A stretch of 53,082 nucleotides of DNA from Anaerolineales bacterium (GTDB lineage: Bacteria > Chloroflexota > Anaerolineae > Anaerolineales > Villigracilaceae). The notes beneath the pieces were generated by a model, which was given only the letters and a program-made list of their open reading frames with translations, had not been told where the DNA came from and made no database searches. This document shows, piece by piece, positions 1,204 through 45,294 of this stretch (position 1 is its first letter; each line of letters opens with the position of its first letter). The DNA is taken from the NCBI GenBank assembly GCA_029933275.1, contig JAOZOM010000001.1:1-53082 (forward strand), written 5' to 3'. The position numbers and the translations under genes are program-made.

Positions 1204-4200
1204 ATGATAGATCAAAAAGATAAAACCGAGTCTTCCCCCAAAGCAAAGCCTAAATTCAAAAATCGATTAGCTTATTCGATGGCTTTGGCATTGCTCATGT
1301 TTGCTGTGATTCCCGTTTCGATTATGGGGTTAGCAGGATATTTACGCGCACGCTCCCTAATAGAAAAACAAGTTGCGTTTCAAATTTACAACATCTCAAA
1401 TAGTCAAGCAGACGCATTCAATAAATCTATCAAAACTAAAAATATTCGATTGAATCGCATCAGCAATCGCCCTGCTTTTTTGGAAGCTGCTGAAACGCTC
1501 ATAGAGACAAGCTCCGTTTCTGACGAGGAAATTTTAAACAAAGAATTTGATGCTGTTAATCGTCCCGATGGAAAACCCATTTTCGATGAATTCTTTCTAA
1601 TTAACTCTGAAGGCATTATTTACGCCACTTCAAATAAAACATGGATGGGCATATCGCTGACAGAATCCCCGGACTATGCTCTACTTACTAATGGGGACAG
1701 TGCTACAGCTCTTTATAACCTAAGTCCCGTCTTGCCAAAACAACTAGCCATTTTTTCGATTGAACCTTTGAAATCCGAAACAGGCAAAGACCTCGGTCTC
1801 TTAATTGGGCTAACAAAAGGGGAAACAATAAGAACTTTTTTAAATGAGACAACTTTTTTCAATCCATCCACCACAGCTTATATTATTTCTGCCAATAATA
1901 TTTATGTAGGCATTGACCCCTATACAAAACAACTAACAGCGTTTGATCCTTCACAAGAACAGCAGGGAGCGATTTACATTTTCTCAAAATCTCCTCTTAC
2001 AGGTGAGGAAGCTATTTATCATTTGCTGAACTTCGAAAACAATTTAGAAGTGGCGGTTGTTGCACAGGCTCATCAAATCGATTCAATTAATAGTCAGATG
2101 ATCCTTGAAGTCCCTCGAAAAATCGCCTTCGGGCAATTAAGCAGCCTGGCTCCTTTTTCCATTTATCTTTTTCTCGGGACACTCCTTGTTATGGGAACCG
2201 TTCTTTGGGTAGCAAGCAATCGAATCGTAAAGCCGATACATGCGCTATCTGACGTTGCACGAAATTTTTCGGCAGGCGATTGGCAAGCACGTGCTTCTGA
2301 GAAACGTAAAGATGAAATTGGTGAATTAGCCCATTCTTTCAACCAAATGGCAGATGAACTCAGTTCACTTTATCGCACCCTTAAATATCAGGTTGACGAA
2401 CGCACGGAATATATCCGCACCGCATCTGATGTCGCCCAAAGTATTGTCGCAACCTTCAATCTGGATGAGCTCCTTGAAAAAACAGCCCGCCTGATTGTTG
2501 AACGCTTCAACTACTATCATGCCGGGGTTTTCATGGTAGGAAACACCGGGAAAACAGCTTATCTTAAAGCTGCGCACGGTCCCGCCGCAAAAGAAATGCT
2601 GAAACGAAAACATCACCTTGACGTTGGCTCCAACTCCATTGTTGGTTGGGTTTCAGCAAATAATCAACCTCGTGCTGCTTCCGATGTGGATGAGGATGCA
2701 GTCTACTTCCAAAACGAGCTTCTCCCCAATACTCATGCTGAGGTAGGTATTCCCATCTCGATTGGGGATACAGTTCTCGGCGTGCTCGATGTGCAAAGTT
2801 CTCATCCCGAGGCTTTTGACGAGGCAACTATCGCGGTTCTTGTAACGCTCTCCAATCAGCTTGCTACCGCTGTTCAAAACGTGAGTCTCTTTGAATCATC
2901 TGACGTTAACTTACAAGAACTTGATCGTTTATATCGTGCCAGTCGAGAAATTGCCCAAGAAAAAACAAGAGACGGCGTTCTTGAAGCACTCCGCCATATT
3001 TTACAAGACGCTCCTTTTAGCACAGTAATTCTTATCCCAAATAATCAAAAAACGCTTATTTACTCCGCTTCAGACCCCGATTACAACGTATCCCAATTCT
3101 CATTACCTGATGAAATCAATACTCCCTTGGCTTCAATTATTGAGCCAGTTACGGGAGATGATAATATTATTGACGTAGATTCTCCTCCCCATTTCCCAAG
3201 AGGCTTTATTGATATTCTTAAGAAAATTGGTTCAAATGCAATATCACTGCTACCTATGACGCAAGAGGGAAATTTAGAAGCATTGATTGTGATTGGTGCA
3301 CGCCATAAGGCGCATCTGACTCAAACGGCAGTGAAACCCTATGTAAACCTAATTGAAATCGTTGCCATTACACTTGATCGAATAAAAGCATTTGAGATGA
3401 CTGAAAGACGTTTAACAGAAATGGAAGCTATCTCTATTACCAATCAAGCCACCGCCGCCGCACGAGATCTCAATTCTTTATATCCTGCTTTACACGAACA
3501 GGTACGTCAAGTTTTAGGAGAATTTTCTTTCGTTGTTGCACTTTATGATGATATTAGCGACACTATTAACATTCCTTACCTTTACGAAGCAGGAAAGGTG
3601 GGTAGCATCGCTCCTTTCCCGTTGGGAGAAGGATTAACATCGATCATCATCCGCACGGGACAGCCTTTAATGATTGTCGAAGATACAGAAAAACGTGCGG
3701 CGGCTTTAGGCGCAAAACTGGTTGGTTCCCCTGCAAAATCGTGGCTTGGCTCTCCCTTACAAGTACAAGGAAAAATCATCGGAGCTATTATTATTCAAGA
3801 TACAGAAAGTGAAAATAGTTTTGATGAAAACTCACTACGTTTTATTAATACTTTAGCCTCTCAGGTATCTGGTGCCATTTACAATATCCAACTGCTTGAA
3901 AACAGCCGTAAAAGAGCTATCCAGTTAGAAAGTGCTGCGGAGATTGCTCGAGATATTAGTGGATCCCTCAATTTAGACGAACTACTTAATAACGCTGTAA
4001 CTTTAATTCGCGAGCGTTTTAATTTTTATCACGCCTCTATATTTCTTATTGACCCTCTTGGCGAATACGCCATCATACGCGAAGCAACCGGCGAAGCAGG
4101 TATACAACTAAAAAGAAATGGACATAAGCTGGCAGTTGGCTCGAAATCTATCGTTGGTTATGTTTCTAATCGTGGTGAAAATCTCGTTATTGAAGATACG

Positions 4201-5085
4201 AATAAAGACGCAACGTATTACGCAAATCCACTCTTACCGGAAACGCGCGCCGAAGCAGCCATCCCGTTGAAAGTCGGAGAACGGATTTTAGGTGTTTTGG
4301 ATGTCCAAAGTGTAAAGCCTTATGCCTTTCCTGAGGAGATTCTACAAACCCTTAGCATCATCGCCGACCAATTAGCTATTGCGGTAATCAACACCGAACT
4401 TTTTGCTGAAACGCAAGAACATCTTTCACAGCATCGCCTCCTCCATCACATCACCACCTCTGCCGCGTCAGGAACAACACTCGAAGAATCTCTCAGAGGT
4501 GCTGTACAAGGTCTCCAAGTTACCTTAGGTGGAGACCGTGTCGCAATACTTCTGGTTGATAAAAAAGAAGAGAAACTTATTGTTGGTGCAGCTATTGGAT
4601 ATTCAGAGGATGATATTGCTTCTATTGAAATTCCCATCGGAGATGGCGTGACCGGTTGGGTGGCTAGAAACCAGAAACTCTTAAAAATTGATGATACTCA
4701 CACCGACCCGCGTTATATCTCTGTTAGCACCAACACACGTTCTGAGTTAGCAATTCCTTTGACATTCAGAAAAGAATTGCTCGGCGTTTTGAATGTGGAA
4801 AGTGAACTAGCCGCCGCGTATGATGAACACGATGAAGAAATGCTCGGAACGCTCGCCGGTAGTCTTGCTGCCATTATCGCAAATTCTCGTCTACTTCAAC
4901 GGGCACGCCGTCAAGCTGAACGCGAGCGAATGCTATATGAAGTTACCAGCAAAATTCGCCGCTCAACAAATGTCCAAACTATCCTCGCCACCACGGCAAA
5001 AGAAATCACAAAAGCAGTTGGGGCACAACACGCTCAGGTCAAAATTGACGTTCGTCTTGACGATAATACTAACCAGAGAAAATAA
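1204..5085 (+). CDS. Sensor S1: TM - Cache-like ectodomain - TM - HAMP - S-helix - multiple GAF units - conserved tail; no transmitter domain seen
   Basis: Hydrophobic helices at aa ~22-47 and ~315-338 flank a ~265-aa segment. HAMP motif DEIGELAHSFNQMADEL and S-helix VDERTEYI are present. There are several GAF-like units, two of the subtype F(N)(Y/F)YHA.(V/I)F...LP(N/E)T(H/R)AE..IP(I/L)...LGVLDVQS. It ends in QAERERMLYEVTSKIRRSTNVQTILATTAKEI... I found no H-box, GGDEF or EAL motifs. Confidence 0.85.
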   Translation: MIDQKDKTESSPKAKPKFKNRLAYSMALALLMFAVIPVSIMGLAGYLRARSLIEKQVAFQIYNISNSQADAFNKSIKTKNIRLNRISNRPAFLEAAETLIETSSVSDEEILNKEFDAVNRPDGKPIFDEFFLINSEGIIYATSNKTWMGISLTESPDYALLTNGDSATALYNLSPVLPKQLAIFSIEPLKSETGKDLGLLIGLTKGETIRTFLNETTFFNPSTTAYIISANNIYVGIDPYTKQLTAFDPSQEQQGAIYIFSKSPLTGEEAIYHLLNFENNLEVAVVAQAHQIDSINSQMILEVPRKIAFGQLSSLAPFSIYLFLGTLLVMGTVLWVASNRIVKPIHALSDVARNFSAGDWQARASEKRKDEIGELAHSFNQMADELSSLYRTLKYQVDERTEYIRTASDVAQSIVATFNLDELLEKTARLIVERFNYYHAGVFMVGNTGKTAYLKAAHGPAAKEMLKRKHHLDVGSNSIVGWVSANNQPRAASDVDEDAVYFQNELLPNTHAEVGIPISIGDTVLGVLDVQSSHPEAFDEATIAVLVTLSNQLATAVQNVSLFESSDVNLQELDRLYRASREIAQEKTRDGVLEALRHILQDAPFSTVILIPNNQKTLIYSASDPDYNVSQFSLPDEINTPLASIIEPVTGDDNIIDVDSPPHFPRGFIDILKKIGSNAISLLPMTQEGNLEALIVIGARHKAHLTQTAVKPYVNLIEIVAITLDRIKAFEMTERRLTEMEAISITNQATAAARDLNSLYPALHEQVRQVLGEFSFVVALYDDISDTINIPYLYEAGKVGSIAPFPLGEGLTSIIIRTGQPLMIVEDTEKRAAALGAKLVGSPAKSWLGSPLQVQGKIIGAIIIQDTESENSFDENSLRFINTLASQVSGAIYNIQLLENSRKRAIQLESAAEIARDISGSLNLDELLNNAVTLIRERFNFYHASIFLIDPLGEYAIIREATGEAGIQLKRNGHKLAVGSKSIVGYVSNRGENLVIEDTNKDATYYANPLLPETRAEAAIPLKVGERILGVLDVQSVKPYAFPEEILQTLSIIADQLAIAVINTELFAETQEHLSQHRLLHHITTSAASGTTLEESLRGAVQGLQVTLGGDRVAILLVDKKEEKLIVGAAIGYSEDDIASIEIPIGDGVTGWVARNQKLLKIDDTHTDPRYISVSTNTRSELAIPLTFRKELLGVLNVESELAAAYDEHDEEMLGTLAGSLAAIIANSRLLQRARRQAERERMLYEVTSKIRRSTNVQTILATTAKEITKAVGAQHAQVKIDVRLDDNTNQRK

Positions 5086-5088
5086 GTT

Positions 5089-7023
5089 ATGAATAAAGAA
5101 GATCGCCTGTTTAACTATTTAGATAATCAACTCAAGCACTGGAAAGGGAAATATATTGTCTATATTGAATGGGTTGTTATTGCATTGTCTGCCCCAGCAA
5201 GTTTAAGCGCGCTCTTTTATATTTCTCTCAATATCAGTTTAACATCCGAAGCAAATATGCTTCTTATCCGCAGTTTAATTATTACTCTTATTATTGCAGA
5301 CATCATTTCGATTGGGATAATGCAACTACAAACTAGAAGTGCCAGAAAACTTCTAAATTTACAAGGTAATAAAAGTCAATACACAAGAGACGCAACTCTT
5401 GAATTACAAGCATGGAAAGAAATCACCGCCCTCCCGTGGCGGTTTTCGGTAATAACATTAATTGCTACAATTACCCTCATTATTGCTCCCATAGAACTTT
5501 ATATGCTAAATATTGTTGGAATTTCCAATAATGAGGGCATCCACCTTGCTATCGGAGGTCTTCTAGCGGGGATTATTGTGGTAACAATCTACACAATATT
5601 ATTAAATGTGCTCCTCCTCCCTGCTCGCCAAGCTCTGCAACCCGAATCTTTTGAAGATCACGTTGCCGGACTTTCCGGGCTTAAAATCCGAACAAGTTTA
5701 CGCGTTTTAAGTATAACTACCATTGCCATTACTTTGCTAACAATCGCACCGCGGAGCTATCAAGAAGCTGTAAATGCCATGAATGCCGCAGGGTTTGGAG
5801 AAGGTGCAGTCATCCAACTCCGTGTACAATTGGCAACCGTGGCAATTAGTGCGTTTATTATCGGTGTAATTCTCGCAGATTCTTTATCCAGAACGCTGTA
5901 CCGTCCAATTGAACGATTACGACAGGTTATGGAGAAAGTCTCCTTAGGGGACCTAAATCAGCGTGCTACTTTGATTTCGACCGATGAAATAGGAGAGTTA
6001 GCCATTTATTTCAATGCGATGGTCAGCCGCCTCGATAACCTACAAAGCGGACTTGAGCAAGTGATAACCAAACGCACCGAACAACTCAAAGCCACAGCCG
6101 AGGTGGGACGCGTTGTTAGTTCAATTTTAAAGTCTGATGAGCTAATGGAAAAAGTAGTCGGCTTAATTACAGAACGTTTAGGATATTACTATGCCGCTAT
6201 ATTCATCATATCTCCTGACGGATATTGGGCAGAATTAAAAAGTGCAACGGGTACTGCGGGGGAAACGTTAAAAGAAAAAAAACACCGTCTTTCCTTAAGC
6301 GGAAAAAGCATGGTGGGATCTGCAATCAGTTTAAGAGAGGCTCGCATTGCTCATGATGTTGGCAAAGAAGCAACTCGCTTCAATAACCCACTTCTCCCCC
6401 ATACCCGTTCAGAGATTGCTCTCCCGCTCATCGTTGGCGGACATGTTTTGGGCGCACTGGATGCTCAATCGACAGAAGAAAACGCTTTCGATGAAGAAGT
6501 TACCGAAACTTTACAGGGGATGGCAAATCAAGTGGCAATCGCTCTTGAAAATGCTCGCTTATTCCAAGAGACACAAGAAACTCTGAAAGAAATCCGCATC
6601 AACCAAAAGACACAACTTTCAACAGCATGGACTGAGGCTTTAGATACGCAAGGCAATCTTGAGTTTTCAACCGGAGAAAAAGCTTCATCTGAAAAACCTG
6701 CTCTTAATGTCCCTCTGGCTTTGCGAGACCAGATTATTGGCGAGATTACGCTTGAAAATGATGCAGGTTGGACAAGAGAAGACCAAGGCTGGGTAGAGGC
6801 GGTCGCTACACAAGCAGCCCTAGCCCTTGAAAACGCTCGTCTCCTTGAAGAGAGTCAACGAATCGCCTTGCAAGAACGGCTTATCGCTGAAATTACAGGG
6901 AAGATATGGTCATCCAGTACAACGGATGGCATCTTAAAAATAGCTGTAAAAGAACTTGGTAGTGCGCTGGGAGCCAGCGAGGCAATCATTCAATTAGATA
7001 TAGACGATCAGCAGGAAATATAA
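5089..7023 (+). CDS. Sensor S2: polytopic membrane domain - HAMP - S-helix - GAF - truncated-GAF tail; no transmitter
   Basis: Several hydrophobic segments lie between aa ~20 and 270. HAMP DEIGELAIYFNAMVSRL, S-helix ITKRTEQLK and GAF LGYYYAAIFIISPDG...LPHTRSEIALPL...LGALDAQS are present. The tail reads ...ALENARLLEESQRIALQERLIAEITGKIW... The start is 3 nt after the S1 stop. Confidence 0.85.
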   Translation: MNKEDRLFNYLDNQLKHWKGKYIVYIEWVVIALSAPASLSALFYISLNISLTSEANMLLIRSLIITLIIADIISIGIMQLQTRSARKLLNLQGNKSQYTRDATLELQAWKEITALPWRFSVITLIATITLIIAPIELYMLNIVGISNNEGIHLAIGGLLAGIIVVTIYTILLNVLLLPARQALQPESFEDHVAGLSGLKIRTSLRVLSITTIAITLLTIAPRSYQEAVNAMNAAGFGEGAVIQLRVQLATVAISAFIIGVILADSLSRTLYRPIERLRQVMEKVSLGDLNQRATLISTDEIGELAIYFNAMVSRLDNLQSGLEQVITKRTEQLKATAEVGRVVSSILKSDELMEKVVGLITERLGYYYAAIFIISPDGYWAELKSATGTAGETLKEKKHRLSLSGKSMVGSAISLREARIAHDVGKEATRFNNPLLPHTRSEIALPLIVGGHVLGALDAQSTEENAFDEEVTETLQGMANQVAIALENARLFQETQETLKEIRINQKTQLSTAWTEALDTQGNLEFSTGEKASSEKPALNVPLALRDQIIGEITLENDAGWTREDQGWVEAVATQAALALENARLLEESQRIALQERLIAEITGKIWSSSTTDGILKIAVKELGSALGASEAIIQLDIDDQQEI

Positions 7024-8705
7024 TGCCTACAGATAAGCCTTCAAAAAACTCATCCATCACCTCAGGAGAAACAAAACCTAATTGGCGAGAAGAAGTGCTC
7101 AATGGGTTGTTACGCGGCATATTTATTTTTGGTCTGTTTGCGGTGTTAATCTCCACAAAAGCGACCATGAGTGATGCTTCGCTATCTAAACAAGCACAGT
7201 TAACTTTTTCAAGCATTTATATCGCCTCAATACTCATCCTAGGAGCAATCACTTTTGTCCACCGCATTCCTTATGCTTTAAGAGCAGGTGTTTTACTCTT
7301 CCTTTTATATGGACTTGGTCTCTCCGGTCTCACAGAATCTGGGTTAAGCGGCGATGGGCGCATATTTATTTTAGTATTTCCCATTATGGCTGCGATTCTC
7401 TTTGATAAGAGACTCGGTTTTATTACCTTGTTCATAGGCGTAAGCACACTGGCTATCACAGCTTTTGCCTTTTCTAGTGGGAGAATTTACATCCCCGCAG
7501 TGTATTTAGCAAACTCCACCTCCCTAAGTGCTTGGATAAGCGGCAGCGTCGTATTATTATTATTAGCCATTGCAACAATTATCCCAATTACATATTTAAT
7601 TCAAAACCTAGAAATTCAGATCATACAAACAAATGATTTGCTCAAAAGTGTAGAAAGTGAACAAAGAACACTCGAACAAATTGTTGAAGAGCGGACAGAA
7701 GAACTGGAACATAGAGCAAGACAACTTGAAAACGCATCCCAAGTTGCTCATAGCGCACTCGTTTTTCAGAATGTAAGTGAACTTTTATCTAATGTAACTG
7801 ATTTTATTTCAGAAAAGTTTGGCTATTATCACGCTGGAATTTTCTTGCTTGACGATAAGAAAGAATACGCTATTCTACAAGCAGCCTCTTCTGATGGAGG
7901 GAAGAAAATGCTTGGACGCGGGCATCAACTTCGGGTTGGGGGCGAGAGCATCGTTGGTGCTACAGCCGCCGAAAAGCGTCCACATATCGCTCTGGATGTC
8001 GGCGTTGACGCGGTCTTTTTCAACAATCCCGATTTACCGGAAACGCACTCAGAGATGGCTCTTCCGCTTCTTTCTCAAAATAATGTTGTTGGCATTCTCG
8101 ATGTTCAATCCACAAAGATTAAGGCATTTAACCAACACGATCTCGAAATTTTTCAAACGCTCGCAAATCAATTAGCTTTAGCTATTCAAAACGCCCACCT
8201 ACTTGAAGAAACACAGACAAGTATTGCTCAATTGGAAGCTCTTACAGCAAAACAATCACAAGTGGCTTGGCAGGCTCATTTAGAACACCAATCTCATCGA
8301 TACCTTTATACCCCCCTCGGTATAAAGCATCTAAAAAGACAACAACTCTTAAGTTCAGAAGAAAATGATGAGAGTGTTAATATTCCAATCGCCCTTCGCG
8401 GGAAGGCAATCGGAAATATTATGCTAAAAAGATTGTCAAAATCTTGGAGTGGTAAAGAAAAAGCCTTGATTTCGGATATTTCTGAGCAAGTTGGCTTGGC
8501 AATAGAAAATGCCCGATTGGTAGATGAAACCCGCAAACAAGCAACCCAAGACCAACTCGTTTCTGAGTTCTCAACCAAATTACGCGAGACCCTTGATATG
8601 GACACTGTCGTAAAGACAGCCATTGAAGAAATAAAGAAAACATTTAATCTCAAAGAAGTGGAAGTGCGATTAAATACACCCGAAGAAGACGAAGTTGAAA
8701 ATTAA
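7023..8705 (+). CDS. Sensor S3: polytopic membrane domain (GDGRI motif type) - S-helix - GAF - truncated-GAF tail; no HAMP, no transmitter
   Basis: The ATG at 7023 overlaps the S2 TAA (TAATG). ~6 hydrophobic segments include SGDGRIFILVF. Coiled coil/S-helix VEERTEELE and GAF FGYYHAGIFLLDDKKEY...FFNNPDLPETHSEMALPL...VGILDVQS are present. The tail reads ENARLVDETRKQATQDQLVSEFSTKLRE... Confidence 0.85.
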   Translation: MPTDKPSKNSSITSGETKPNWREEVLNGLLRGIFIFGLFAVLISTKATMSDASLSKQAQLTFSSIYIASILILGAITFVHRIPYALRAGVLLFLLYGLGLSGLTESGLSGDGRIFILVFPIMAAILFDKRLGFITLFIGVSTLAITAFAFSSGRIYIPAVYLANSTSLSAWISGSVVLLLLAIATIIPITYLIQNLEIQIIQTNDLLKSVESEQRTLEQIVEERTEELEHRARQLENASQVAHSALVFQNVSELLSNVTDFISEKFGYYHAGIFLLDDKKEYAILQAASSDGGKKMLGRGHQLRVGGESIVGATAAEKRPHIALDVGVDAVFFNNPDLPETHSEMALPLLSQNNVVGILDVQSTKIKAFNQHDLEIFQTLANQLALAIQNAHLLEETQTSIAQLEALTAKQSQVAWQAHLEHQSHRYLYTPLGIKHLKRQQLLSSEENDESVNIPIALRGKAIGNIMLKRLSKSWSGKEKALISDISEQVGLAIENARLVDETRKQATQDQLVSEFSTKLRETLDMDTVVKTAIEEIKKTFNLKEVEVRLNTPEEDEVEN

Positions 8706-8720
8706 GCACTGGAAATTCTC

Positions 8721-11633: not shown

Positions 11634-13294
11634 TATCTCTCCCGACCTCCCAACCACAGAAAAATCCAGACGCTATAAAAGTTTGGCAGGAAACCGTTTT
11701 TAATAACATCGCAAAATTTATCGGCATTGCGGGAAGCGCAGTTTACTTAATCTATGTGGCTCTAAATTATCAAAAAACGAGTCCTGCACTTATCTTGGTT
11801 TATACAATTGCCTATTTGTTGGTTTTGGGAGCAGCCTTCGTCCTGCGCGTACCCATGATGTATCGAGTGATAATTTTTGCCTCGATGGTTTTAGCTATTG
11901 GTATTTCTGCTTCACTTGAAAGTGCCGCTGTAGGCGATGGACGCATTTGGTTCATCTTATCTGCATTTTTCGCTGTAGCTTTTTTGGGGCGAAGAGCTGG
12001 ATTATTTTTCGTCTTCCTAATTTCTATTATCTGGGGAGTATTAGGTTATCTTTTTACCTCAGAAATCATCCCACAACCTGAAGTAGCGCAATACTCTTTC
12101 TCCATTTGGGGAGGGACTACAGTTACACTTTTCGCTGTTGCGTTGATTATAATTTTAACAATCAATGCTCTTTTGGTTAACCTAGGTCAAAATATAGAAA
12201 AAAGCGATGCCTTAGCACAAAAATCTAAAGAACAAGCACGGCAAGTCGAAACACAAAAAATAGCCCTAGAACGACGGGCAAATGCTCTAGAAGCATCTGC
12301 TCGAATTAGCCGTCAGATAGCCTCTATAACCTTGCATCAAGATATATTGAATGAAGCACCAAAGCTTTTTCGTGAAGAATTTTCTTTGAACAGCGTCTCT
12401 ATTTTCTTGTTGAATACAGAAAATATGCTTCGGTTGACATCCTGTAGTGGTTGGAATGAGCAAGCCAAACCCACGCGTGACTACGTCCTATCCCTTGATA
12501 AAGATATCGCGGGGATGGCTATCCTAAATGATCGAGCTTATTCCGATACCGATACCGAAGTCAAATTAGAAGTAGCTCTTCCTGAAACACAATCTTATTC
12601 CGTTATTCCACTGCGTGGACGTGATAAAACGCTCGGCGTTTTTATTTTACAAAGTGAATCTCCCTCAGCTTTTGGCGCAGAACGTCTTTCTATTTTACAG
12701 ATGCTTGTCAATCACGTTGCTATCCTTCTTGAAAATGCCGATTTATTAGTGCAAAAAGAACATGCCTTAGAAGCCGAAAGACGTGCTTATGGAGAAATTG
12801 CTCAAACAGATTGGAAAGATTTTATAAAGTCTCAAAATTATGCCGGTTATAGGCGGGACGAGAAAGGTCTGACACTCACTTCTACTAAACCGTATCTTCC
12901 GGAAGAGAAACGGGTAGAAGCTGAACAGGTTCCTATTAGAATTCGAGGCAAAATTATCGGGCATATTGATGCGCACAAAGCTAAAAATAGAGCTTGGACT
13001 GCCTCTGAAAAAGAGTTGCTGCATATTTTAGCTTCACGCTTGGAAACAGCGATGGATAGTGCGCGTCTTTATCAAGATTCGCAACAACGAGTTGAACGAG
13101 AGCGGATTATTAGTGAAACCTCTGCCCAAATACGAGAAAGTTTAGATATTGAAAGCGTGCTTGAAACAGCTGCTCGTGAATTGAGAAACGCTTTGGATCT
13201 CTCAGAAGCAGAAATTTGGATCAATGCAGAAAATATACAAGGAATGGATAACACACCATCCATAAACCTCGAGAAAGAAGATAAAAAATCGTGA
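11630..13294 (+). CDS. Sensor S5: polytopic membrane domain (GDGRI motif type) - coiled coil - divergent GAF - truncated-GAF tail; no transmitter
   Basis: ATGA overlap with the S4 stop. The membrane domain shares VGDGRIWFILS with S3. The GAF is divergent (FSLNSVSIFLLNTENM...LPETQSYSVIPL...LGVFILQS). The tail reads DSARLYQDSQQRVERERIISETSAQIRESLDIESVLETAARELR... Confidence 0.8.
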   Translation: MISLPTSQPQKNPDAIKVWQETVFNNIAKFIGIAGSAVYLIYVALNYQKTSPALILVYTIAYLLVLGAAFVLRVPMMYRVIIFASMVLAIGISASLESAAVGDGRIWFILSAFFAVAFLGRRAGLFFVFLISIIWGVLGYLFTSEIIPQPEVAQYSFSIWGGTTVTLFAVALIIILTINALLVNLGQNIEKSDALAQKSKEQARQVETQKIALERRANALEASARISRQIASITLHQDILNEAPKLFREEFSLNSVSIFLLNTENMLRLTSCSGWNEQAKPTRDYVLSLDKDIAGMAILNDRAYSDTDTEVKLEVALPETQSYSVIPLRGRDKTLGVFILQSESPSAFGAERLSILQMLVNHVAILLENADLLVQKEHALEAERRAYGEIAQTDWKDFIKSQNYAGYRRDEKGLTLTSTKPYLPEEKRVEAEQVPIRIRGKIIGHIDAHKAKNRAWTASEKELLHILASRLETAMDSARLYQDSQQRVERERIISETSAQIRESLDIESVLETAARELRNALDLSEAEIWINAENIQGMDNTPSINLEKEDKKS

Positions 13295-13319
13295 TACCCA
13301 TGGTTATAGGAAGATACCG

Positions 13320-15014
13320 ATGCGTAATTTGACGAGGAAGCTATTTACTCCACCCATTTTTGAAGAAGATGAGGATAAAACTCGTTCGGCTGAGTTGCTT
13401 AATGCTATTTTATTCAGCGGATATTTATTCATTATTCTTATTTTGGTCGCTCTGTTGGTTGGTGATGCCCCGATCAATATGATTGTTATTATCACAATTC
13501 TTCTTTTCTCTGTCTTCGTCTTACACCTTTTCTTACGAAAAGGCTACGTTCAAGAAACAAGCATTATTCTTGTCGTTTTTATGACCTTAGCATTAACCGT
13601 CACAATAGCAATTGGAGGTTCTATCCGCGCTGCCTCTATTTCATTTTATATTCTAGCAAGTATCGTCAGCGGTTTACTCATTAGCACGCAAGCTCTTTAT
13701 TGGTCTGCCTTTGTTAATACAATCATTGTTTTTATCTTGCTTTGGGCAGAAAATACAGGAAACCTCCCAGACGCAACATACGCTCCCAGCCTCCAACCGG
13801 GGATTATATTTGCAGCAGCCTCAATGATGACGGCTCTTTTGCTTAGCCTAGCCCTTAATAGATTAAACCAAGCTCTACGCCGAGTAAAACGCGAAAAAGA
13901 ACTTGCAATACGTAATCTTGATTTAGAAAAACGTGTAAAAGAACGCACTGCCGAATTGGAAAGAAATTCCTCTTATCGGGAAAGTGCCGCCGAAGTTAGC
14001 CGAGCAATCGCCTCACTCATTGATACAGATGAACTCATCTGGCAAGTTGTAAATTTGATTAAGGAACGCTTTAATCTTTATTATGTGGGTCTCTTTCTTG
14101 TAGATTCAAGTGAAAAATGGGCAATCCTGAGAGCAGGCACGGGAGAAGCTGGTAAAGCGATGCTAGAAAATGAACATCGTCTCAAAATTGGCGAAGGCAT
14201 GATTGGATGGTGTATAGCCAATGCCAAAGCTAGGATTGCCCTAGACGTTGGCGAGGATGCTGTTCGCTTTGACAACCCTCATTTACCAGAAACTCATTCC
14301 GAGGGAGCATTGCCGCTTCGCTCGCGGGGACAGGTGCTCGGCGCACTGACAATTCAGAGCCGTGAAAAGGCAGCTTTCACCTCCGAAATTATCACCATTC
14401 TCCAAACAATGGTTGATCAAATAGCCATTGCGATTGACAACGCACAGTTATTAGCACAAAACGAAGCCGCATTGAAAGCTGAACGCAAAGCTTACGGTGA
14501 ATTAAGCCGAGAAGATTGGCTCGAAATTCTACAAAGACAAAAAACATTCAGCTATCTCTCTAATGCGCCAAATAGCGTTTACCCCATTCAACATAAAAAA
14601 TCGTCCGAAACTCTACGAAATCTTCAAGAAAAGCGGTTTTTAGAAGATGATGGATTAACCGCATTCATCCCTATCAAAATTCGCGGATATTTACTCGGCG
14701 GTATCAGGTTACGCAAAGAAAAGAATATCTGGACAAAAGAGCAATTGGATCTGGCAGAAACTTTAGCTAGTCAAATTAGCATATCCTTAGAAAGCGCACG
14801 TCTTTTTGACCAAAGTCAACGCCGTGCTGTACGAGAACGTATTATTGGGCAAGCAGGAGCAAAAATGAGAGAAACGCTCAACATAGAAAGTGTCTTAGAA
14901 ACAGCAGCAAAAGAATTACATAAAGCTCTCGGAGGCATGGAAACTAAGGTTTGGATTGCACCAGAAAATGATGATAATTCAAAGCTTAGGTTTAAGAAGG
15001 AAAATCAATCATGA
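13320..15014 (+). CDS. Sensor S6: polytopic membrane domain (PPxFE motif type) - S-helix - GAF - truncated-GAF tail; no transmitter
   Basis: AGGAAG RBS at 13308-13313. The N-terminus LFTPPIFEEDEDKTRSAELLNAILF is followed by ~5 hydrophobic segments. S-helix VKERTAELE and GAF FNLYYVGLFLVDSSEKW...RFDNPHLPETHSEGALPL...LGALTIQS are present. The tail reads ESARLFDQSQRRAVRERIIGQAGAKMRETLNIESVLETAAKEL... Confidence 0.85.
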   Translation: MRNLTRKLFTPPIFEEDEDKTRSAELLNAILFSGYLFIILILVALLVGDAPINMIVIITILLFSVFVLHLFLRKGYVQETSIILVVFMTLALTVTIAIGGSIRAASISFYILASIVSGLLISTQALYWSAFVNTIIVFILLWAENTGNLPDATYAPSLQPGIIFAAASMMTALLLSLALNRLNQALRRVKREKELAIRNLDLEKRVKERTAELERNSSYRESAAEVSRAIASLIDTDELIWQVVNLIKERFNLYYVGLFLVDSSEKWAILRAGTGEAGKAMLENEHRLKIGEGMIGWCIANAKARIALDVGEDAVRFDNPHLPETHSEGALPLRSRGQVLGALTIQSREKAAFTSEIITILQTMVDQIAIAIDNAQLLAQNEAALKAERKAYGELSREDWLEILQRQKTFSYLSNAPNSVYPIQHKKSSETLRNLQEKRFLEDDGLTAFIPIKIRGYLLGGIRLRKEKNIWTKEQLDLAETLASQISISLESARLFDQSQRRAVRERIIGQAGAKMRETLNIESVLETAAKELHKALGGMETKVWIAPENDDNSKLRFKKENQS

Positions 15015-16162
15015 AACTCAAAACAAGATCATTTTTCGCATTAATCGTAATCCTGTTTTCTAGCATCCTATCAGCTTGCACCACAGCAGAGAAAGAAATT
15101 TCTGAAATCAGAATCGGGGTCATCGCACCAATTACTGGGGCAATTTCTACCGTAGGAAAATCCACGGTTAATGCTGCTGAACTAGCCGTGAGAGAAATAA
15201 ATGAAAATGGTGGTTTAACTATCAATGATGCAAAATATAAAATCACGCTCATTATTGTTGATAATCAAGATAATGAACAAGAGACTGCCGCTGCGGTTCA
15301 AAAATTGATTAACCAAGATAATGTTGTCGCTATTATCGGACCGCAAGCTAGCCGAAACGCGATTCCAGCCGCTAATATCGCTGAAAATGCGGGCATTCCA
15401 ATGATCAGCCCGTGGTCAACAAATCCTGCCACAACAGCAGGGAAAAGCTATGTCTTTCGCGTCGCCTTTATCGATTCGTTTCAAGGACAAGTAATGGCAC
15501 GGTTTACCTTTGAAGAGTTTGGTGGGGAAAAAATTGCCGTGCTTTACGATATAGCCAGTGATTACAATAAAGGTATCGCTGAGATCTATAAAAAGATTGT
15601 TGAAGATGCGGGTGGAAAAATCGTTGCCTTCGAATCTTATACAACAGGAGAAGAAGATTTTAGCGAACAGCTTCAACGCATAAAAGACAGTGGAGCAACC
15701 CTTCTCTTTTTACCCAATTATTACAACGAAGTACCTCAGCAAGTCCAACAAGCAAAAGAATTAGGAATCACCGCTACCTTTATTGGGAGCGATGCGTGGA
15801 GCGGCATTCCGGAAGAAGATCTCGATTTACTTGAGGGAAGTTTCTTTAGTACACATTATTCCCCTGATATTGCCAATGAAGCTGCTCAAATTTTTATCCA
15901 ATCCTATCAACAAAGCTACAATGTAGTTCCCGACGATGTTGCCGCATTGACCTACGATGCGTTCGGTCTGCTTTTTCAAGCTATCCAAACACAAGATGAG
16001 GCAAACCCAGAGGCTATTCGAGCTGGTTTAGCCGCAACAGAGGCTTATTCTGGCATCACGGGAACAATGGAATATCGAGGTACAGGTGACCCAATTAAGA
16101 GCGCAGTTATTTTGAAAATAGAAAATGGACAGTTTGTATTTTACAAACAAGCCAGCCCCTAA
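15011..16162 (+). CDS. Type-1 periplasmic-binding-fold (LivJ/LivK-like) solute-binding lipoprotein
   Basis: ATGA overlap with the S6 stop. The signal peptide carries the lipobox LSAC (Cys23). IRIGVIAPITGA...GKS..NAAELAVREINENGG...IIGPQASRNA is typical of the PBP1 branched-chain-amino-acid/amide binding family. No permease or ATPase genes are adjacent. Confidence 0.85.
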   Translation: MKLKTRSFFALIVILFSSILSACTTAEKEISEIRIGVIAPITGAISTVGKSTVNAAELAVREINENGGLTINDAKYKITLIIVDNQDNEQETAAAVQKLINQDNVVAIIGPQASRNAIPAANIAENAGIPMISPWSTNPATTAGKSYVFRVAFIDSFQGQVMARFTFEEFGGEKIAVLYDIASDYNKGIAEIYKKIVEDAGGKIVAFESYTTGEEDFSEQLQRIKDSGATLLFLPNYYNEVPQQVQQAKELGITATFIGSDAWSGIPEEDLDLLEGSFFSTHYSPDIANEAAQIFIQSYQQSYNVVPDDVAALTYDAFGLLFQAIQTQDEANPEAIRAGLAATEAYSGITGTMEYRGTGDPIKSAVILKIENGQFVFYKQASP

Positions 16163-16175
16163 TGGAGGTTTCCTC

Positions 16176-18383
16176 GTGATTGAACGCATGATGAATTTTT
16201 GGCAAGGCAGTATCAAAACACGCCTAATCGGCTATTTCATGTTGCTTGCCCTTACTATAGCCAGCGTAGGACCCTTCCTCACCTTTACTTACTCGAAAAA
16301 AGCATTAGAAACATCGGTAATTAATCGTTTACACACCGCAACCACCCTAAAAGAGTCTGAATTAAATCGCTGGGTCTCTGACCGTGAAAAGGATATAACA
16401 CTTTTATCGCAAGAACCTGCATTACTTATTCAAGCAGAAATTCTACTCTCAGCGAAAACCTCTGATCCTTTCTACTCTCCCTCTTATCAAAATTTATCCG
16501 CTTATTTTCAAAACATTCTAAACTATAACGATAATTTTTCTGAAATCTTTCTTCTTACTGACGTAGGGGGAAAAATTGTCTTATCAACAAACCATGAACA
16601 AGAAGGAGAATATCGCGTTACCGATAAATATTTCACCGAAGGTCGTCTTGCACTCTACTCGCAACATATTTACCCTTCTCCAACGACCGGTAAACCGATT
16701 ATGACCATTGCCATTCCCGTTATCAACAGAAATGGTCAACATATTGGCGTTTTAGCAGCAAATCTCAATATGAAAAAACTAGATGAAATTATTCTCGAGC
16801 GGGCTGGATTAGGGAAAAGCGGCGAAACTTATCTCGTTGATCGATTTAATAGCTTTGTATCCGCAACAAAATATGGAGAAAACAAATTTCCACGTGGAGT
16901 CCATACAACAGGAATTGACGCAGCCCTCTCAGGAGAAGATGGAGCAGGACTATATCTAAACTATGAAGATATTCCTGTTGTAGGTGTTTATCAATGGGTG
17001 GACGGACAAGAAATTGCTCTCCTGGCAGAAATTAGTCAAGACGAAGCCTTCGCTCTTGCCCGAGAGTTGACTTTAAAAATTCTACTAATCGGTTTGGCTT
17101 CAGTCCTACTTGCAGGCGTTGGGGTCTACTTTGTTGCACAACAAATCACTCGCCCTATTCTTGCAATCACAGCAACAGCAACAGAAATTGCAGGTGGAGA
17201 CCTTAGCCAATCTGCGCCAGTACTCACAAAAGATGAAATCGGCATTTTAGCACAGTCTTTTAACAGCGTCACAACAAGAGTCAGAGAATTAATTAATACG
17301 CTCGAAGAGCGCGTCGAAGAACGTACCCGTGCGCTCAAACTGCATACAACTTATCTCAAAGGCGCAGCTGAGGTAAGCCGAGCCGCAGCAACATTCACCG
17401 ATTCTGAACAACTTTCCCGTCAAGTAGTCGAACTAATTCGAGAGTATTTTGATTTCTATTATGTTGGACTTTTCCTTGTTGATAAAAACAGAAAATATAC
17501 CATTTTAAAGGCAGGCTCAGGGAAAGAAGGCGAAAGAATGCTTGCCGAAAATTACCGTCTAAAAATTGATGAGGGGATGATTGGATGGGCAATTCAAAAT
17601 GAAAAACCGCGTATTGCTTCAGATATAAGCAAGGATACCGTTCGCAAAAACGACTCTGGTTTGTCTAAAACACGATCAGAAGCCGCATTGCCGTTACGCT
17701 CACGAGGACACGTATTTGGCGCACTAACGGTACAAAGCAATGAGGCAAATGCCTTCACATCGCAAATCATCACGACTCTGCAAACAATGGCAGACCAAAT
17801 CGCGGTCGCGTTCGATAACGCCGAGCTTCTTGCCAAAAGTGAAGCTGCTTTAGAGGCAGAACGGCGTGCCTACGGCGAATTTAGTAACCAATCTTGGCGA
17901 GCATTAATCCAAGCTGGTGAAATTCCAACTTATAAGGTCAATACAGAAGGAGTCACAGAGACAATTCCCCGCGAAGAAAACCCAGAAGAGATCAAAGCCA
18001 TCCACGAAGGAAAAATCATCCAAAAAGAGGACAAATCAATTTTACTCCCCATCAAAAGTCATGGGAAAGTTCTCGGTGGCATTCGCATTACACAAAAAAA
18101 CGAAAGCGAAAAATGGACAAAAGAACAAATTCAATTAGCCGAAACACTCGCTGAACAACTCAGTGTAGCCTTAGAAAGTGCCCGTCTCTTTGAAGAAACA
18201 CAACGCAAAGCGCAGCGAGAAGCAATTATCTCTGATATCTCCACAAAAATTGGTGCTTCTATTCAAATGGATTCCATCATTCAAACCACAGTCAAAGAAC
18301 TTGGCGATGCCCTAAACGTACCTGAAATTGCCTTTCGCTTAACAGGACCACAAAAATCCGATATGCAAAGTGAAGTTGCTTAG
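16176..18383 (+). CDS. Sensor S7: TM - Cache-like ectodomain - TM - HAMP - S-helix - GAF - truncated-GAF tail; no transmitter
   Basis: I prefer the GTG at 16176, which has GGAGG (16164-16168) 7 nt upstream. The ORF-track start at 16125 overlaps the preceding gene. Cache-like stretch SQHIYPSPTTGKPIMTIAIPV..NGQHIGVLAANLN...GETYLVD, HAMP DEIGILAQSFNSVTTRV, S-helix VEERTRALK and GAF FDFYYVGLFLVDKNRKY...LSKTRSEAALPL...FGALTVQS are present. The tail reads ESARLFEETQRKAQREAIISDISTKIG... Confidence 0.85.
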   Translation: MIERMMNFWQGSIKTRLIGYFMLLALTIASVGPFLTFTYSKKALETSVINRLHTATTLKESELNRWVSDREKDITLLSQEPALLIQAEILLSAKTSDPFYSPSYQNLSAYFQNILNYNDNFSEIFLLTDVGGKIVLSTNHEQEGEYRVTDKYFTEGRLALYSQHIYPSPTTGKPIMTIAIPVINRNGQHIGVLAANLNMKKLDEIILERAGLGKSGETYLVDRFNSFVSATKYGENKFPRGVHTTGIDAALSGEDGAGLYLNYEDIPVVGVYQWVDGQEIALLAEISQDEAFALARELTLKILLIGLASVLLAGVGVYFVAQQITRPILAITATATEIAGGDLSQSAPVLTKDEIGILAQSFNSVTTRVRELINTLEERVEERTRALKLHTTYLKGAAEVSRAAATFTDSEQLSRQVVELIREYFDFYYVGLFLVDKNRKYTILKAGSGKEGERMLAENYRLKIDEGMIGWAIQNEKPRIASDISKDTVRKNDSGLSKTRSEAALPLRSRGHVFGALTVQSNEANAFTSQIITTLQTMADQIAVAFDNAELLAKSEAALEAERRAYGEFSNQSWRALIQAGEIPTYKVNTEGVTETIPREENPEEIKAIHEGKIIQKEDKSILLPIKSHGKVLGGIRITQKNESEKWTKEQIQLAETLAEQLSVALESARLFEETQRKAQREAIISDISTKIGASIQMDSIIQTTVKELGDALNVPEIAFRLTGPQKSDMQSEVA

Positions 18384-18397
18384 CTAAGGAAAGAACC

Positions 18398-20065
18398 ATG
18401 CTAAAAATCTTAAAAAAGATATTATTTCCACCGGTTTTTGAAGACCAAGAGCGCACCAAGATTGCACAATTTATAAATGCAATTGTCTATGTAAGCATTC
18501 TTCTATTAGGATTGATCATCCTATCTGTAGGCAATCTTCAATCAACAACAAGCCTAGTGCTTGGCTCGCTTATTTTCGTAATGATTGGCATTCAAATCTT
18601 TATGCGTACCGGGCGAGTTCGCTTATCTGCCATATTATTAATCGGACTAACATGGTTCGCAATGAGCTATATGGCTTGGGAAGCAGACGGCATCCGCAAC
18701 GCCTCGCTTATTGCTTATCTCATTTTAATCTTCTTGACGAGCTTATTAGGCAGTCTCCGCCTATTTATCTCATTTACCGCCCTGACCATTATCTCACTTT
18801 GGGTCCTAGTTTACGCCGAACTAAAGGGGATAATAGCCCCCACCCTTGATACCCCTACTCACCTAGCACGCGATTTCTCCGCCATTTTTATCCTCATTGC
18901 AGTCCTTGTCTACCTCACACTTACCAATCTTAACAAAGCCTTATCCGCTTCAAAAGAAAACGAAAATAAGCTCTTACTACACAATCAAGAACTCACGCAA
19001 TTTCAAGATGGATTAGAAAAACTCGTGAACGAACGCACATCTGAACTGGAAGAAAATTCGAAAAAATTGCAAACACGAGCAATGCAACTTCAAGCAATAT
19101 CAGAAGTATCACAAACTATAGCGTTAGTACAAAATCAAGATCTTCTTTTACCTGAAATCACAAATTTAATTAGCGAACGCTTTGATTTTTACCATACCGG
19201 CATTTTTTTAATCAGCAAAGATGAAAAGTTCGCCACGCTCCACGCAAGCAATAGCCCTGGCGGCAAGGAAATGTTAGCGCATGGACATCAATTAGAAATA
19301 GGCAAAAAAGGCATTGTTGGGCGTGTCGCTCAAGATGGAAAAACCCGCATCGCTCTTGACGTTGGCGAGGATGCCACTTATTTCGATAACCCCGATCTCC
19401 CCGAAACCCGCTCAGAGATGGCACTTCCGCTAAAGGTGAAAAATAAAATCATCGGAGTACTAGATGTGCAAAGTAAACGAAAAAATGTCTTCTCTCAAGA
19501 AGATATCGAAATTTTTGAAGCCCTTGCAAATCAGGTTGCTATCGCTATAGAAAACACACGTCTGGCAGAAGAAACACAAAAAGCACTCGAAGAAGCTCGT
19601 TCGATTTCTCGTCAATATATCCACCAAGCATGGACTCAACTAGCAGCAACACAGCAACAGAAAGGCTACCGCTACACAGAGAAAAAGCTTCATCCCCTTT
19701 CAAAGGATAGTGAAAACTTCATAGGATCCAAAAGTGACATCATCTCAATCCCCGTGCAATTACGCGAAGAAACAATCGGGGTTCTCGAAGTCACCAGAGC
19801 CGATTCATCACAAACGCTAGATGAAGACACATTAAATCTAATTCAATCTGTAGTCAATCGTTTTGCCCTAGCCCTAGAAAACGCCCGTCTTCTCGAAGAA
19901 ACCTCCCGCCGTGCAGGACGCGAACGTCTCGTTTCGGACATCACCACAAAGATTCGTAGCACGAACAATCCTCAAGAGATGATACAAACAGCTTTGGACG
20001 AACTCAAGCAAGCTTTGGGTGCAAGTAAAATTGAATTGGCAACCACAATGCCAGAGGTAGATTAA
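18398..20065 (+). CDS. Sensor S8: polytopic membrane domain (PPxFE motif type) - S-helix - GAF - truncated-GAF tail; no transmitter
   Basis: AAGGAAAG RBS upstream. The N-terminus ILFPPVFEDQERTKIAQFINAIVYV parallels S6. S-helix VNERTSELE and GAF FDFYHTGIFLISKDEKF...YFDNPDLPETRSEMALPL...IGVLDVQS are present. The tail reads ENARLLEETSRRAGRERLVSDITTKIRS... Confidence 0.85.
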   Translation: MLKILKKILFPPVFEDQERTKIAQFINAIVYVSILLLGLIILSVGNLQSTTSLVLGSLIFVMIGIQIFMRTGRVRLSAILLIGLTWFAMSYMAWEADGIRNASLIAYLILIFLTSLLGSLRLFISFTALTIISLWVLVYAELKGIIAPTLDTPTHLARDFSAIFILIAVLVYLTLTNLNKALSASKENENKLLLHNQELTQFQDGLEKLVNERTSELEENSKKLQTRAMQLQAISEVSQTIALVQNQDLLLPEITNLISERFDFYHTGIFLISKDEKFATLHASNSPGGKEMLAHGHQLEIGKKGIVGRVAQDGKTRIALDVGEDATYFDNPDLPETRSEMALPLKVKNKIIGVLDVQSKRKNVFSQEDIEIFEALANQVAIAIENTRLAEETQKALEEARSISRQYIHQAWTQLAATQQQKGYRYTEKKLHPLSKDSENFIGSKSDIISIPVQLREETIGVLEVTRADSSQTLDEDTLNLIQSVVNRFALALENARLLEETSRRAGRERLVSDITTKIRSTNNPQEMIQTALDELKQALGASKIELATTMPEVD

Positions 20066-44100: not shown

Positions 44101-44107
44101 CCCTCAC

Positions 44108-44611: not shown

Positions 44612-44661
44612 CGGTAAAATCCTATAGAAATCGGTAAGCTTATCCGGTTTCGGGGACTAAC

Positions 44662-45222: not shown

Positions 45223-45294
45223 TTTACTCCTTTTCATCTTTAAAGAAATTAAAAAATTGCCAAAATTCCAATATGCGCCTCCTTCGCTTAAATA

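Follow-up and report, generated by a model that had tools for sequence, protein, structure and literature searches.

An array of membrane GAF sensors without recognisable output domains in a conserved Anaerolineae gene cluster with a hybrid histidine kinase and a ParA-type ATPase

The window analysed here, i.e. the whole 53,082-nucleotide (nt) stretch of contig JAOZOM010000001.1 (assembly GCA_029933275.1) from an Anaerolineales bacterium of the Chloroflexota, carries eight co-directional open reading frames (ORFs) on the + strand, S1 to S8, that encode membrane sensors with the same cytoplasmic GAF module and no recognisable output domain. The proteins are 1293, 644, 560, 970, 554, 564, 735 and 555 amino acids (aa) long, 5875 aa in total, and the opposite strand has no listed ORF of 150 aa or more across the array. 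An initial annotation, made from the sequence alone, had given eight gene coordinates and a total of ~5,870 aa that the ORF listing reproduces (Table 1). Its account of tight junctions holds for adjacent genes, which are separated by +3, -1 (TAATG), +15, -4 (ATGA), +25 and +14 nt, and fails for S6 and S7, which are not neighbours. The interval between these two holds a gene, omitted from that annotation, for a 383-aa LivJ-like periplasmic binding protein, which shares 4 nt with S6 and stops 13 nt short of S7. The longest ORF of S7 opens at an ATG at 16125; the GTG at 16176 (735 aa) is the start used by gene callers in other assemblies, and in the initial annotation.

The module common to all eight proteins consists of a signalling helix (S-helix), a GAF domain, usually a reduced “mini-GAF”, and a C-terminal stub of ~45 aa. 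Pfam profiles GAF, GAF_2 and GAF_3 exceed their curated cut-offs across the eight sensors, with four Pfam-significant GAF domains in S1. The single GAF subtype and conserved tail that had been described for all eight are clear in an alignment running from the S-helix to the C-terminus; the ERT signature of the S-helix, also ascribed to all, is present in six, with KRT in S2 and no such motif in S5. Searches with Pfam and NCBIfam hidden Markov models (HMMs) detected no HisKA, HATPase, GGDEF, EAL, HD-GYP, cyclase, STAS or methyl-accepting chemotaxis protein (MCP) signalling domain in S1-S8. HATPase_c has no match in them, though the same scan detects it in the neighbouring kinases; HisKA_3 or a related dimerisation and histidine phosphotransfer (DHp) domain is likewise unmatched in both databases, as is MCPsignal (PF00015), and the NCBIfam MCP matches are limited to the HAMP region. 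The C-terminal ~170 aa contain no recognisable transmitter or enzyme and are made up of a reduced GAF, a connector helix and a short GAF-start stub. The central proposal of the initial annotation, namely a set of membrane sensors that share a GAF core and lack any transmitter that can be recognised, is thus upheld by HMM scans, AlphaFold and Foldseek.

The architecture of the module can be seen in an AlphaFold2 model of S6 residues 196-564 (68 sequences, mean predicted local distance difference test (pLDDT) score of 80). It shows, in order, the S-helix, a GAF domain with pLDDT 96-98, a 50-residue helix, a small domain of beta-beta-alpha-beta-beta-alpha topology (pLDDT about 60-86), a 45-residue connector helix, a short helix and an unstructured end; in the AlphaFold models, only about four strands of the second GAF are left. 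Foldseek comparison of this model with the PDB retrieves solely GAF, tandem-GAF (PDE2A, PDE5) and GAF-PHY structures, with E values of 1e-9 to 1e-7 against the GAFs of fRMsr, PtsP, phosphodiesterases and phytochromes. A tail-only model (S6 residues 376-564, 107 sequences) has the same topology; its Foldseek matches are weak (best E 9.5e-3), nearly all to GAF, PHY or CodY-type domains, and none has a Bergerat fold. In a phmmer search of PDB sequences the S6 tail aligns to the GAF-GAF junctions of tandem-GAF kinases (8w26, E 1.5e-8; 6oap, 1e-6), its final ~45 residues matching the first helix and strand of a GAF. The stub thus appears, from this alignment, to correspond to the first helix and strand of a further, otherwise absent GAF. 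In S1 and in short homologs (e.g. L066, 7486-8430; L numbers denote related loci introduced below) the stub stands directly behind a full GAF, so that the universal core of the family is a GAF followed by the stub.

Several other identities for the tail and the GAF were considered. A cryptic DHp or pseudo-kinase tail is rejected, given that there is no HisKA match and no conserved histidine and that the terminal 45 aa align to the GAF starts of 8w26 and 6oap; a histidine occurs in the stub region only in S6 among S2-S8 and is not conserved, and no tail column has an invariant His across the 68 and 107 aligned sequences. Cysteine is nearly missing from S1-S8, with 0-1 per protein of 554-1293 aa and none conserved, which rules out an enzymatic GAF of the kind found in fRMsr, one of the top Foldseek matches. 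The lack of a conserved His and the 0-1 Cys together exclude a cryptic phospho-acceptor, fRMsr-type catalysis and bilin attachment. The consensus of the core GAF has neither the NKFDE motif of cyclic-nucleotide-binding GAFs nor a conserved Cys. A circular permutation, with the stub folded back on the mini-GAF, is not supported, the last ~28 residues being an unpacked coil in both monomer models.

In contrast to the constant cytoplasmic module, the input ends differ, with 2-7 hydrophobic segments per protein in a simple hydropathy scan. HAMP domains score above the Pfam cut-off of 25 bits in S1 (58.2), S2 (48.9), S4 (50.7) and S7 (51.7), each right behind a predicted transmembrane (TM) segment, and are absent from S3, S5, S6 and S8 by Pfam. 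The initial annotation had placed a Cache-like ectodomain plus HAMP in S1, S4 and S7. The HAMP is present in all three; dCache_1 passes its cut-off of 45 bits in S7 (67.4), is sub-threshold in S1 (20.7-24 bits, with the full profile spanned), and has no HMM support in S4, the ectodomain of which gives no Cache match even at E<=1 and is preceded by six N-terminal TM segments. The polytopic domain plus HAMP described for S2 is borne out by six TM segments and the Pfam score. Two further polytopic types had been distinguished, and these can be refined: the “GDGRI” type of S3 and S5 is MASE11 (PF20969, 62.5 and 56.3 bits against a cut-off of 27.3), and the “PPxFE” type is a weak, sub-threshold MASE11 in S6 (18 bits) and, in S8, which has no MASE11 match, a domain homologous to that of S6, the two proteins being homologous end to end at 33%. 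MASE11 has been described as a sensor domain paired with HD-GYP, GGDEF-EAL and kinase outputs.

The eight paralogs share 24-50% amino acid identity, and at the DNA level, repeats among their genes show 60-78% identity and do not extend beyond motif regions. In other genomes, full-length orthologs at corresponding positions exist for S1-S5 (41-69% identity). Those of S1 (full-length, 46-49%) are the first gene after a pair of receiver genes (REC-REC) in L036, L040, L047 and L050, and in L047 S2- and S3-type genes come next, in the same order as in the window; the full-length ortholog of S4 in L008 is 57% identical, and a protein identical to S8 is present on at least nine metagenome contigs. 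Given the low paralog identity and the positional orthologs, the duplications are old and maintained, as had been suggested initially.

Homologs are numerous. At E<=1e-10 the S6 module retrieves at least 2500 proteins, of which the best 120 are labelled only “GAF domain-containing protein” or similar, have no recorded output domain, and come, where the organism is named, from Anaerolineae or other Chloroflexota metagenome-assembled genomes (MAGs). A tail profile built from the window paralogs matches all 120, ending within ~30 residues of the C-terminus in 117. A scan restricted to one genome per species found at least 441 relatives; the organisms named in the best 80 loci are all Chloroflexota except for L064, labelled only “bacterium”, and include Anaerolineales, Thermoflexales, Caldilineae, Anaerolinea thermophila (L077), Levilinea and Ca. 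Villigracilis. An exhaustive search with the tail profile gave 85,387, 37,960 and 10,743 clusters, the last being 50%-identity clusters at E<=1e-30; these counts are misleading as a family size, being dominated by poly-GAF proteins with 7-21 matches each at GAF-GAF junctions, and they therefore overstate the number of output-less membrane sensors. Among the poly-GAF proteins are giants with 6-18 tandem GAF domains (P0121 with 3792 aa, P0126, P0196, P0234 and P0192), several of which have no output domain and a full-length tail-profile match at the end; P0192 ends in HisKA_3 and HATPase.

The sensor array appears to be the middle of a larger conserved operon, which supplies a kinase, receivers and a ParA-type ATPase, and the sensors are therefore probably not stand-alone. 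The order of the 15 genes is REC, REC, S1-S6, binding protein, S7, S8, ParA-like ATPase, hybrid kinase, a pyridoxal phosphate (PLP) enzyme with a receiver (PALP-REC) and an EamA transporter, with intergenic gaps from REC1 to EamA of -35 to +72 nt; 9 nt separate the end of REC2 from S1. REC1 has a readable acidic pair and phospho-acceptor Asp motif. The N-terminus of the binding protein is a hydrophobic segment followed by Cys. Genes for such proteins lie inside the arrays of five other loci, with an S7-like sensor next in three of these, and the position of this one just upstream of S7 hints at a binding-protein-dependent receptor. Among PDB sequences, those of ParA and Soj come nearest to the ATPase (E 1e-43 to 1e-33). 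At the N-terminus of the hybrid kinase stand a basic peptide, a low-complexity linker and a half-GAF; behind these lie a number of GAF and PAS domains, HisKA, HATPase and finally a pair of REC domains. PALP-REC scores 257.7 bits against the NCBIfam threonine synthase model, under the equivalog cut-off of 303, and the PALP-REC/EamA pair could serve a regulated, exported metabolite. No STAS domain was matched in any operon protein. Terminator-like sites occur at chance frequency, with none on the + strand within the intergenic gaps of the operon; promoter and terminator scans equal the shuffled expectation and are uninformative, and Rfam and tRNA scans of the operon gave no match.

Table 1. Coordinates of the sensor genes and of the other genes of the proposed operon in the window.
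Feature	Coordinates (nt)	Strand	Description	Evidence
REC1	322..711	+	Stand-alone receiver, 129 aa, first gene of the operon	Pfam Response_reg 100.9 bits
REC2	760..1194	+	Stand-alone receiver, 144 aa	Pfam Response_reg 73.1 bits
S1	1204..5085	+	TM, dCache-like ectodomain, TM, HAMP, at least 4 GAF, C-terminal GAF-start stub nt 4879-5082	Pfam, hydropathy
S2	5089..7023	+	6-TM domain, HAMP, S-helix (KRT), GAF, mini-GAF, stub nt 6829-7020	
S3	7023..8705	+	MASE11, S-helix (ERT), GAF, mini-GAF, stub nt 8505-8702	Pfam MASE11 62.5, GAF_2 78.9 bits; alignment
S4	8721..11633	+	6 TM, ~320-aa ectodomain, TM, HAMP, S-helix, GAF, mini-GAF, stub nt 11427-11630	
S5	11630..13294	+	MASE11, divergent GAF (no ERT), mini-GAF, stub nt 13055-13291	Pfam MASE11 56.3, GAF 57.3 bits
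S6	13320..15014	+	Polytopic domain (weak MASE11), S-helix, GAF, mini-GAF, stub nt 14790-15011	Pfam, AlphaFold, Foldseek
LivJ-like periplasmic binding protein	15011..16162	+		Pfam Peripla_BP_6 209.5 bits; NCBIfam branched-chain amino-acid substrate-binding protein subfamily 152 bits
S7	16176..18383	+	TM, dCache_1, TM, HAMP, S-helix, GAF, mini-GAF, stub nt 18174-18380; GTG start	Pfam dCache_1 67.4, HAMP 51.7, GAF_2 96.3 bits
S8	18398..20065	+	Polytopic domain homologous to that of S6, S-helix, GAF, mini-GAF, stub nt 19877-20062	
ParA/Soj-type deviant Walker-A ATPase	20138..20926	+	262 aa, KGGVAKTT	Pfam AAA_31 156 bits, CbiA, MipZ, ParA
Hybrid histidine kinase	20892..25895	+	1667 aa, cytoplasmic	Pfam
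Threonine-synthase-like PLP enzyme with C-terminal receiver (PALP-REC)	25900..27579	+		Pfam PALP 211, Response_reg 72 bits
EamA-family transporter	27585..28535	+	Last co-directional gene	Pfam EamA 99 bits; NCBIfam 2A78 carboxylate/amino acid/amine transporter

The operon order recurs in dozens of Chloroflexota genomes, mostly Anaerolineae. Annotation of 78 related loci with profiles built from the window proteins yielded 395 tail-terminal ORFs, with up to 10 tail-bearing sensors per 21 kb. REC-REC opens the array in 11 related loci. A ParA homolog, for which co-occurrence with such arrays and a hybrid kinase in Chloroflexota had been proposed as a check, is present in 33 of the 78; a tail-bearing sensor gene stands directly upstream of ParA in 30 of these 33 loci, and a kinase directly downstream in 13. 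PALP-REC lies downstream of the kinase in L033, L034, L046, L071, L072 and L078, with EamA next after it in all of these except L072, and the two genes follow the kinase in every locus long enough to show it. The components also remain linked in rearranged order, e.g. REC-REC-kinase-ParA-sensors in L014 and L066.

Membrane kinases that share the front end of the sensors are found among these loci. L014 (1053-3509), L066 (4294-6729), L028 (1638-4058) and L049 (2-2434) each encode a kinase of ~810 aa with TM, Cache-like, TM and HisKA/HATPase regions as the first gene after REC-REC, and a 5'-truncated kinase in L032 (1-1482) has HAMP, S-helix and GAF directly joined to the H-box “SHELRTPL”. The sensors thus have true kinases among their paralogs and carry the mini-GAF and stub where these have the DHp and catalytic (CA) domains. 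The initial reading of the interval was incomplete in this regard, as it missed both the larger operon and the existence of kinase-bearing paralogs.

The cytoplasmic kinase of the window is itself related to the sensors through its DHp-proximal GAF, which is 34-42% identical to their core GAF (28% for the divergent S5) and far nearer to it than the other GAFs of the kinase are. Close to its N-terminus (residues 58-129, nt 21063-21278) lies the half-GAF, a beta-hairpin plus alpha5 with no alpha1 or beta1 ahead, which is kept in all 11 aligned orthologous kinases that reach the region. On a 160-position profile of the GAF subtype this half-GAF occupies positions 101-160, and the stubs of five of the eight sensors (S1, S3, S4, S5 and S7) align to positions 3-42 with individually weak scores of 1.6-5.7 bits, so that half-GAF and stub map to complementary parts of one fold. 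The 580-aa homolog P0042 has two tandem copies of its terminal unit (hairpin, alpha5, connector, alpha1, beta1), and the stub is covalently joined to the following hairpin and alpha5, i.e. P0042 would be a natural fusion of the two fragments proposed below to dock.

The extreme N-terminus of the window kinase (residues 1-21, nt 20892-20954) is the peptide MSKKQINNRLNKLFDDIKEEE, which is conserved in 14 of 14 aligned orthologous cytoplasmic kinases and followed by a variable low-complexity linker. Across the related loci, the gene that comes next after ParA, kinase or sensor alike, is marked at its start by a peptide of the “RLDKLFxD” type, behind which lies an acidic or Pro-rich linker. The peptide is present in 24 of 27 genes in this position (13 kinases, 10 sensors and 4 truncated or other), whereas of 368 further ORFs for sensors or kinases 10 have it (Fisher 2e-27). 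A strict pattern derived from kinases alone is recovered in 7 of the 10 sensors at the post-ParA position. Examples outside the window are those at L014|4444, L026|12059, L032|11965, L043|11905, L049|3387, L060|1431 and L066|7486; in the window the kinase alone has the peptide, and none of S1-S8 does. Partners of ParA/MinD ATPases bind via charged, disordered N-termini and are encoded by genes that adjoin the ATPase gene (PMC10241942, PMC11407121). The “RLDKLFxD” peptide is named here as a candidate ParA-partner motif. As kinase and sensor can each be the putative ParA partner, the two probably belong to one physical assembly.

We propose, at a probability of roughly one half, that S1-S8 are kinase-less receptors that signal by contact to a shared hybrid kinase, in an assembly organised by the ParA-type ATPase. 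The receptors would differ in their input (dCache, MASE11-type or other polytopic), one of them probably being served by the embedded binding protein, and have their cytoplasmic signalling rod in common. The rod would run from HAMP and/or S-helix through GAF, long helix, reduced GAF and connector helix to the stub of ~45 aa, and since it ends without a catalytic domain its output would have to be protein-protein contact. The most likely contact target is the cytoplasmic poly-GAF hybrid histidine kinase of the same operon, which would integrate the signals of all receptors; its phosphorylation targets would be the two CheY-like receivers and the threonine-synthase-like-REC enzyme, the latter paired with the EamA exporter. 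The “RLDKLFxD” peptide, on the kinase or, where loci are rearranged, on a sensor, would be the binding site of the ParA-type ATPase, which would position or partition the complex as a whole. Docking might proceed by fragment complementation, the sensor stub (GAF alpha1 and beta1) completing the half-GAF (beta-hairpin and alpha5) of the kinase. Taken to its full extent, this would define a new class of receptor array, in which up to ten or more receptors dock by split-GAF complementation, are positioned by ParA via “RLDKLFxD”, and control by phosphorylation the synthesis and release of a small molecule by a PLP enzyme and an exporter; we regard this wider picture as tentative and, in all its parts together, doubtful.

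A number of points weigh against the proposal. The data show the domain anatomy, the lack of an output domain, the conserved operon and the association of the peptide with the post-ParA position; that sensors touch the kinase, that ParA binds the peptide, that docking is by a split GAF and which way phosphate is transferred are all steps that we infer, and co-transcription of the 15 genes we likewise infer from gene spacing alone. Among the ORFs scanned (33.7-46.3 kb) there is no histidine phosphotransfer (Hpt) protein to relay the phosphate of the hybrid kinase. The relaxed form of the peptide pattern was designed after the data were seen. Apart from its low profile scores, the stub has a pLDDT of about 50-65 and is undocked in both monomer models. 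In rearranged loci, moreover, the ParA-adjacent kinase is a membrane kinase that lacks the half-GAF, and the sensors still keep the stub; split-GAF docking to the cytoplasmic kinase therefore cannot be universal.

The peptide and the gene order also bear on a different reading, namely that the sensors act on the ParA-type ATPase and not on the kinase. They would then form a membrane platform controlling ParA cycling or localisation, with a spatial output such as division-site or nucleoid positioning in filamentous cells, and the kinase would be a parallel branch. The sensor gene directly upstream of 30 of the 33 ParA genes and the 10 loci where the post-ParA peptide sits on a tail-bearing sensor instead of a kinase are in keeping with this, and stimulation of the ATPase is common among ParA/MinD partners (PMC11407121). 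However, the window peptide is found on the kinase only and is absent from S1-S8, and the conserved REC, kinase and REC-enzyme genes of the operon favour a phosphorylation output, which makes this reading unlikely.

Since membrane kinases with the same front end exist in L014, L028, L049 and L066, and a GAF is joined to an H-box in L032, the sensors could also be dominant-negative or modulatory partners of such kinases, tuning or silencing them through mixed dimers formed via TM, HAMP, S-helix and GAF regions, in the manner of a truncated pseudo-kinase. The common GAF subtype and S-helix would permit heterodimers of this kind. However, the window operon is without such a membrane kinase, its sole co-directional kinase being cytoplasmic, and a decoy needs neither a mini-GAF and stub that are strongly conserved over the 120 best homologs nor eight different inputs. 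We consider this role improbable, to about the same degree as direct action on ParA.

Less probable still is that the conserved GAF of all sensors has one small molecule from inside the cell as its ligand, which might be what the threonine-synthase-like enzyme makes, and that the sensors are receptors or sinks which join an external and an internal cue without signalling to a kinase. The pocket region “DVG.DA..F.NP.LPETRSE.ALPL” is highly conserved in paralogs and orthologs, GAFs are classic small-molecule binders with ligand-bound examples among the top structural matches, and the operon has conserved genes for a PLP enzyme and an exporter. Yet no ligand can be assigned; the consensus has neither NKFDE nor a conserved Cys for bilin or fRMsr-type chemistry; the operon codes for no cyclase or other messenger synthase; and binding alone leaves the signalling-helix rod behind HAMP and S-helix unexplained. 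Finally, although the sensors look like kinases cut off after the GAF, the idea that they are decayed histidine kinase remnants without catalytic core or current function is effectively refuted by conservation, as all ORFs are intact, the same C-terminal tail is found in the 120 best homologs and the 395 tail-terminal ORFs of the 78 loci, paralog order is kept between distant genomes and an identical protein occurs in several metagenomes.

The contact-signalling receptors proposed here resemble several known systems in part. Chemoreceptor arrays of MCP, CheW and CheA, including those positioned by ParC or PpfA, likewise have many paralogous membrane receptors with diverse inputs (Cache, HAMP), a non-enzymatic conserved cytoplasmic end, one shared kinase, CheY-like single-domain receivers and a ParA-type ATPase gene within the signalling operon (PMC11407121). 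In contrast to these, the system described here has no MCP signalling domain, CheA, CheW, CheB or CheR, a GAF-based module in place of the four-helix hairpin, a HisKA-type hybrid kinase and no evident link to motility. The stressosome (RsbR paralogs, RsbS and RsbT) is alike in its paralogous sensors with a variable N-terminal and one conserved C-terminal domain, which are thought to co-assemble and to control one kinase by contact; its conserved module is STAS, however, and its proteins are soluble, whereas ours are integral membrane proteins with GAF modules, without STAS or an RsbT-type kinase. A precedent for control of a separate histidine kinase by direct contact from a protein with GAF as its sole cytoplasmic signalling domain is NreA, which regulates NreB (PMC8139620). 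NreA differs in being a small soluble single GAF that senses through its own pocket, whereas here the GAF is downstream of membrane inputs and followed by mini-GAF and stub; the NCBIfam NreA model scores 15.7 bits in S8 only, against a cut-off of 175.

Kinases of the NarX/NarQ type have the same order of modules from membrane to GAF (HAMP, S-helix, GAF or GAF-like, DHp-CA), including the ERT S-helix, and differ in that S1-S8 are entirely without DHp and HATPase. Tandem-GAF modules (PDE2A/PDE5 GAF-A/GAF-B, phytochrome GAF-PHY and cyanobacterial poly-GAF kinases) share the succession of GAF, long helix and second GAF-like domain, with Foldseek alignments over 330-400 columns. They regulate a covalently attached enzyme, whereas the proteins here end ~45 residues into a further GAF, and their second GAF has about four strands. 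All component domains are already known, and it is the architecture and the operon that appear to be undescribed in the searchable literature. The initial annotation had allowed that this might be a common, already characterised family: it is very common in Anaerolineae, and no paper characterising it, nor any published description of the system, was found in the searchable literature, which covers few subscription journals.

Some features of the window stand apart from the above. The G+C content is 0.37-0.46 over the sensor array and kinase (window positions 1-26000) and 0.45-0.51 in the rest (26000-53082). A second two-component cluster on the - strand (28643-33581), encoding an OmpR-type regulator, a REC-GAF kinase and a GAF-GAF kinase, converges on the end of the operon, and a similar minus-strand trio lies behind EamA in L078. 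Further along, a - strand cluster (43015-45237) encodes WxL (31.6 bits) and WxL-interacting-protein peptidoglycan-binding (46.5 bits) domains; surface-protein families of the WxL type are known mainly from Firmicutes and are hence unexpected in Chloroflexota.

Sediments, digesters and activated sludge are rich in Anaerolineae, bacteria that are mostly filamentous and have been little studied. If the proposed contact signalling to a shared, ParA-organised kinase is true, these bacteria would integrate many inputs by a receptor-array logic known mainly from chemotaxis and the stressosome, with an array built from wholly different parts (GAF modules, a HisKA hybrid kinase and a ParA ATPase). It would also add a new kind of cargo for ParA/MinD ATPases, together with a defined partner-peptide motif, and possibly the first case of signalling via complementation of a split GAF domain. 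Cultured strains of Anaerolinea thermophila exist, and as the system is found in an assembly of this species (L077), experiments may be feasible. For the family as a whole, the proposal would provide a working annotation for thousands of database proteins that are labelled only “GAF domain-containing protein”.

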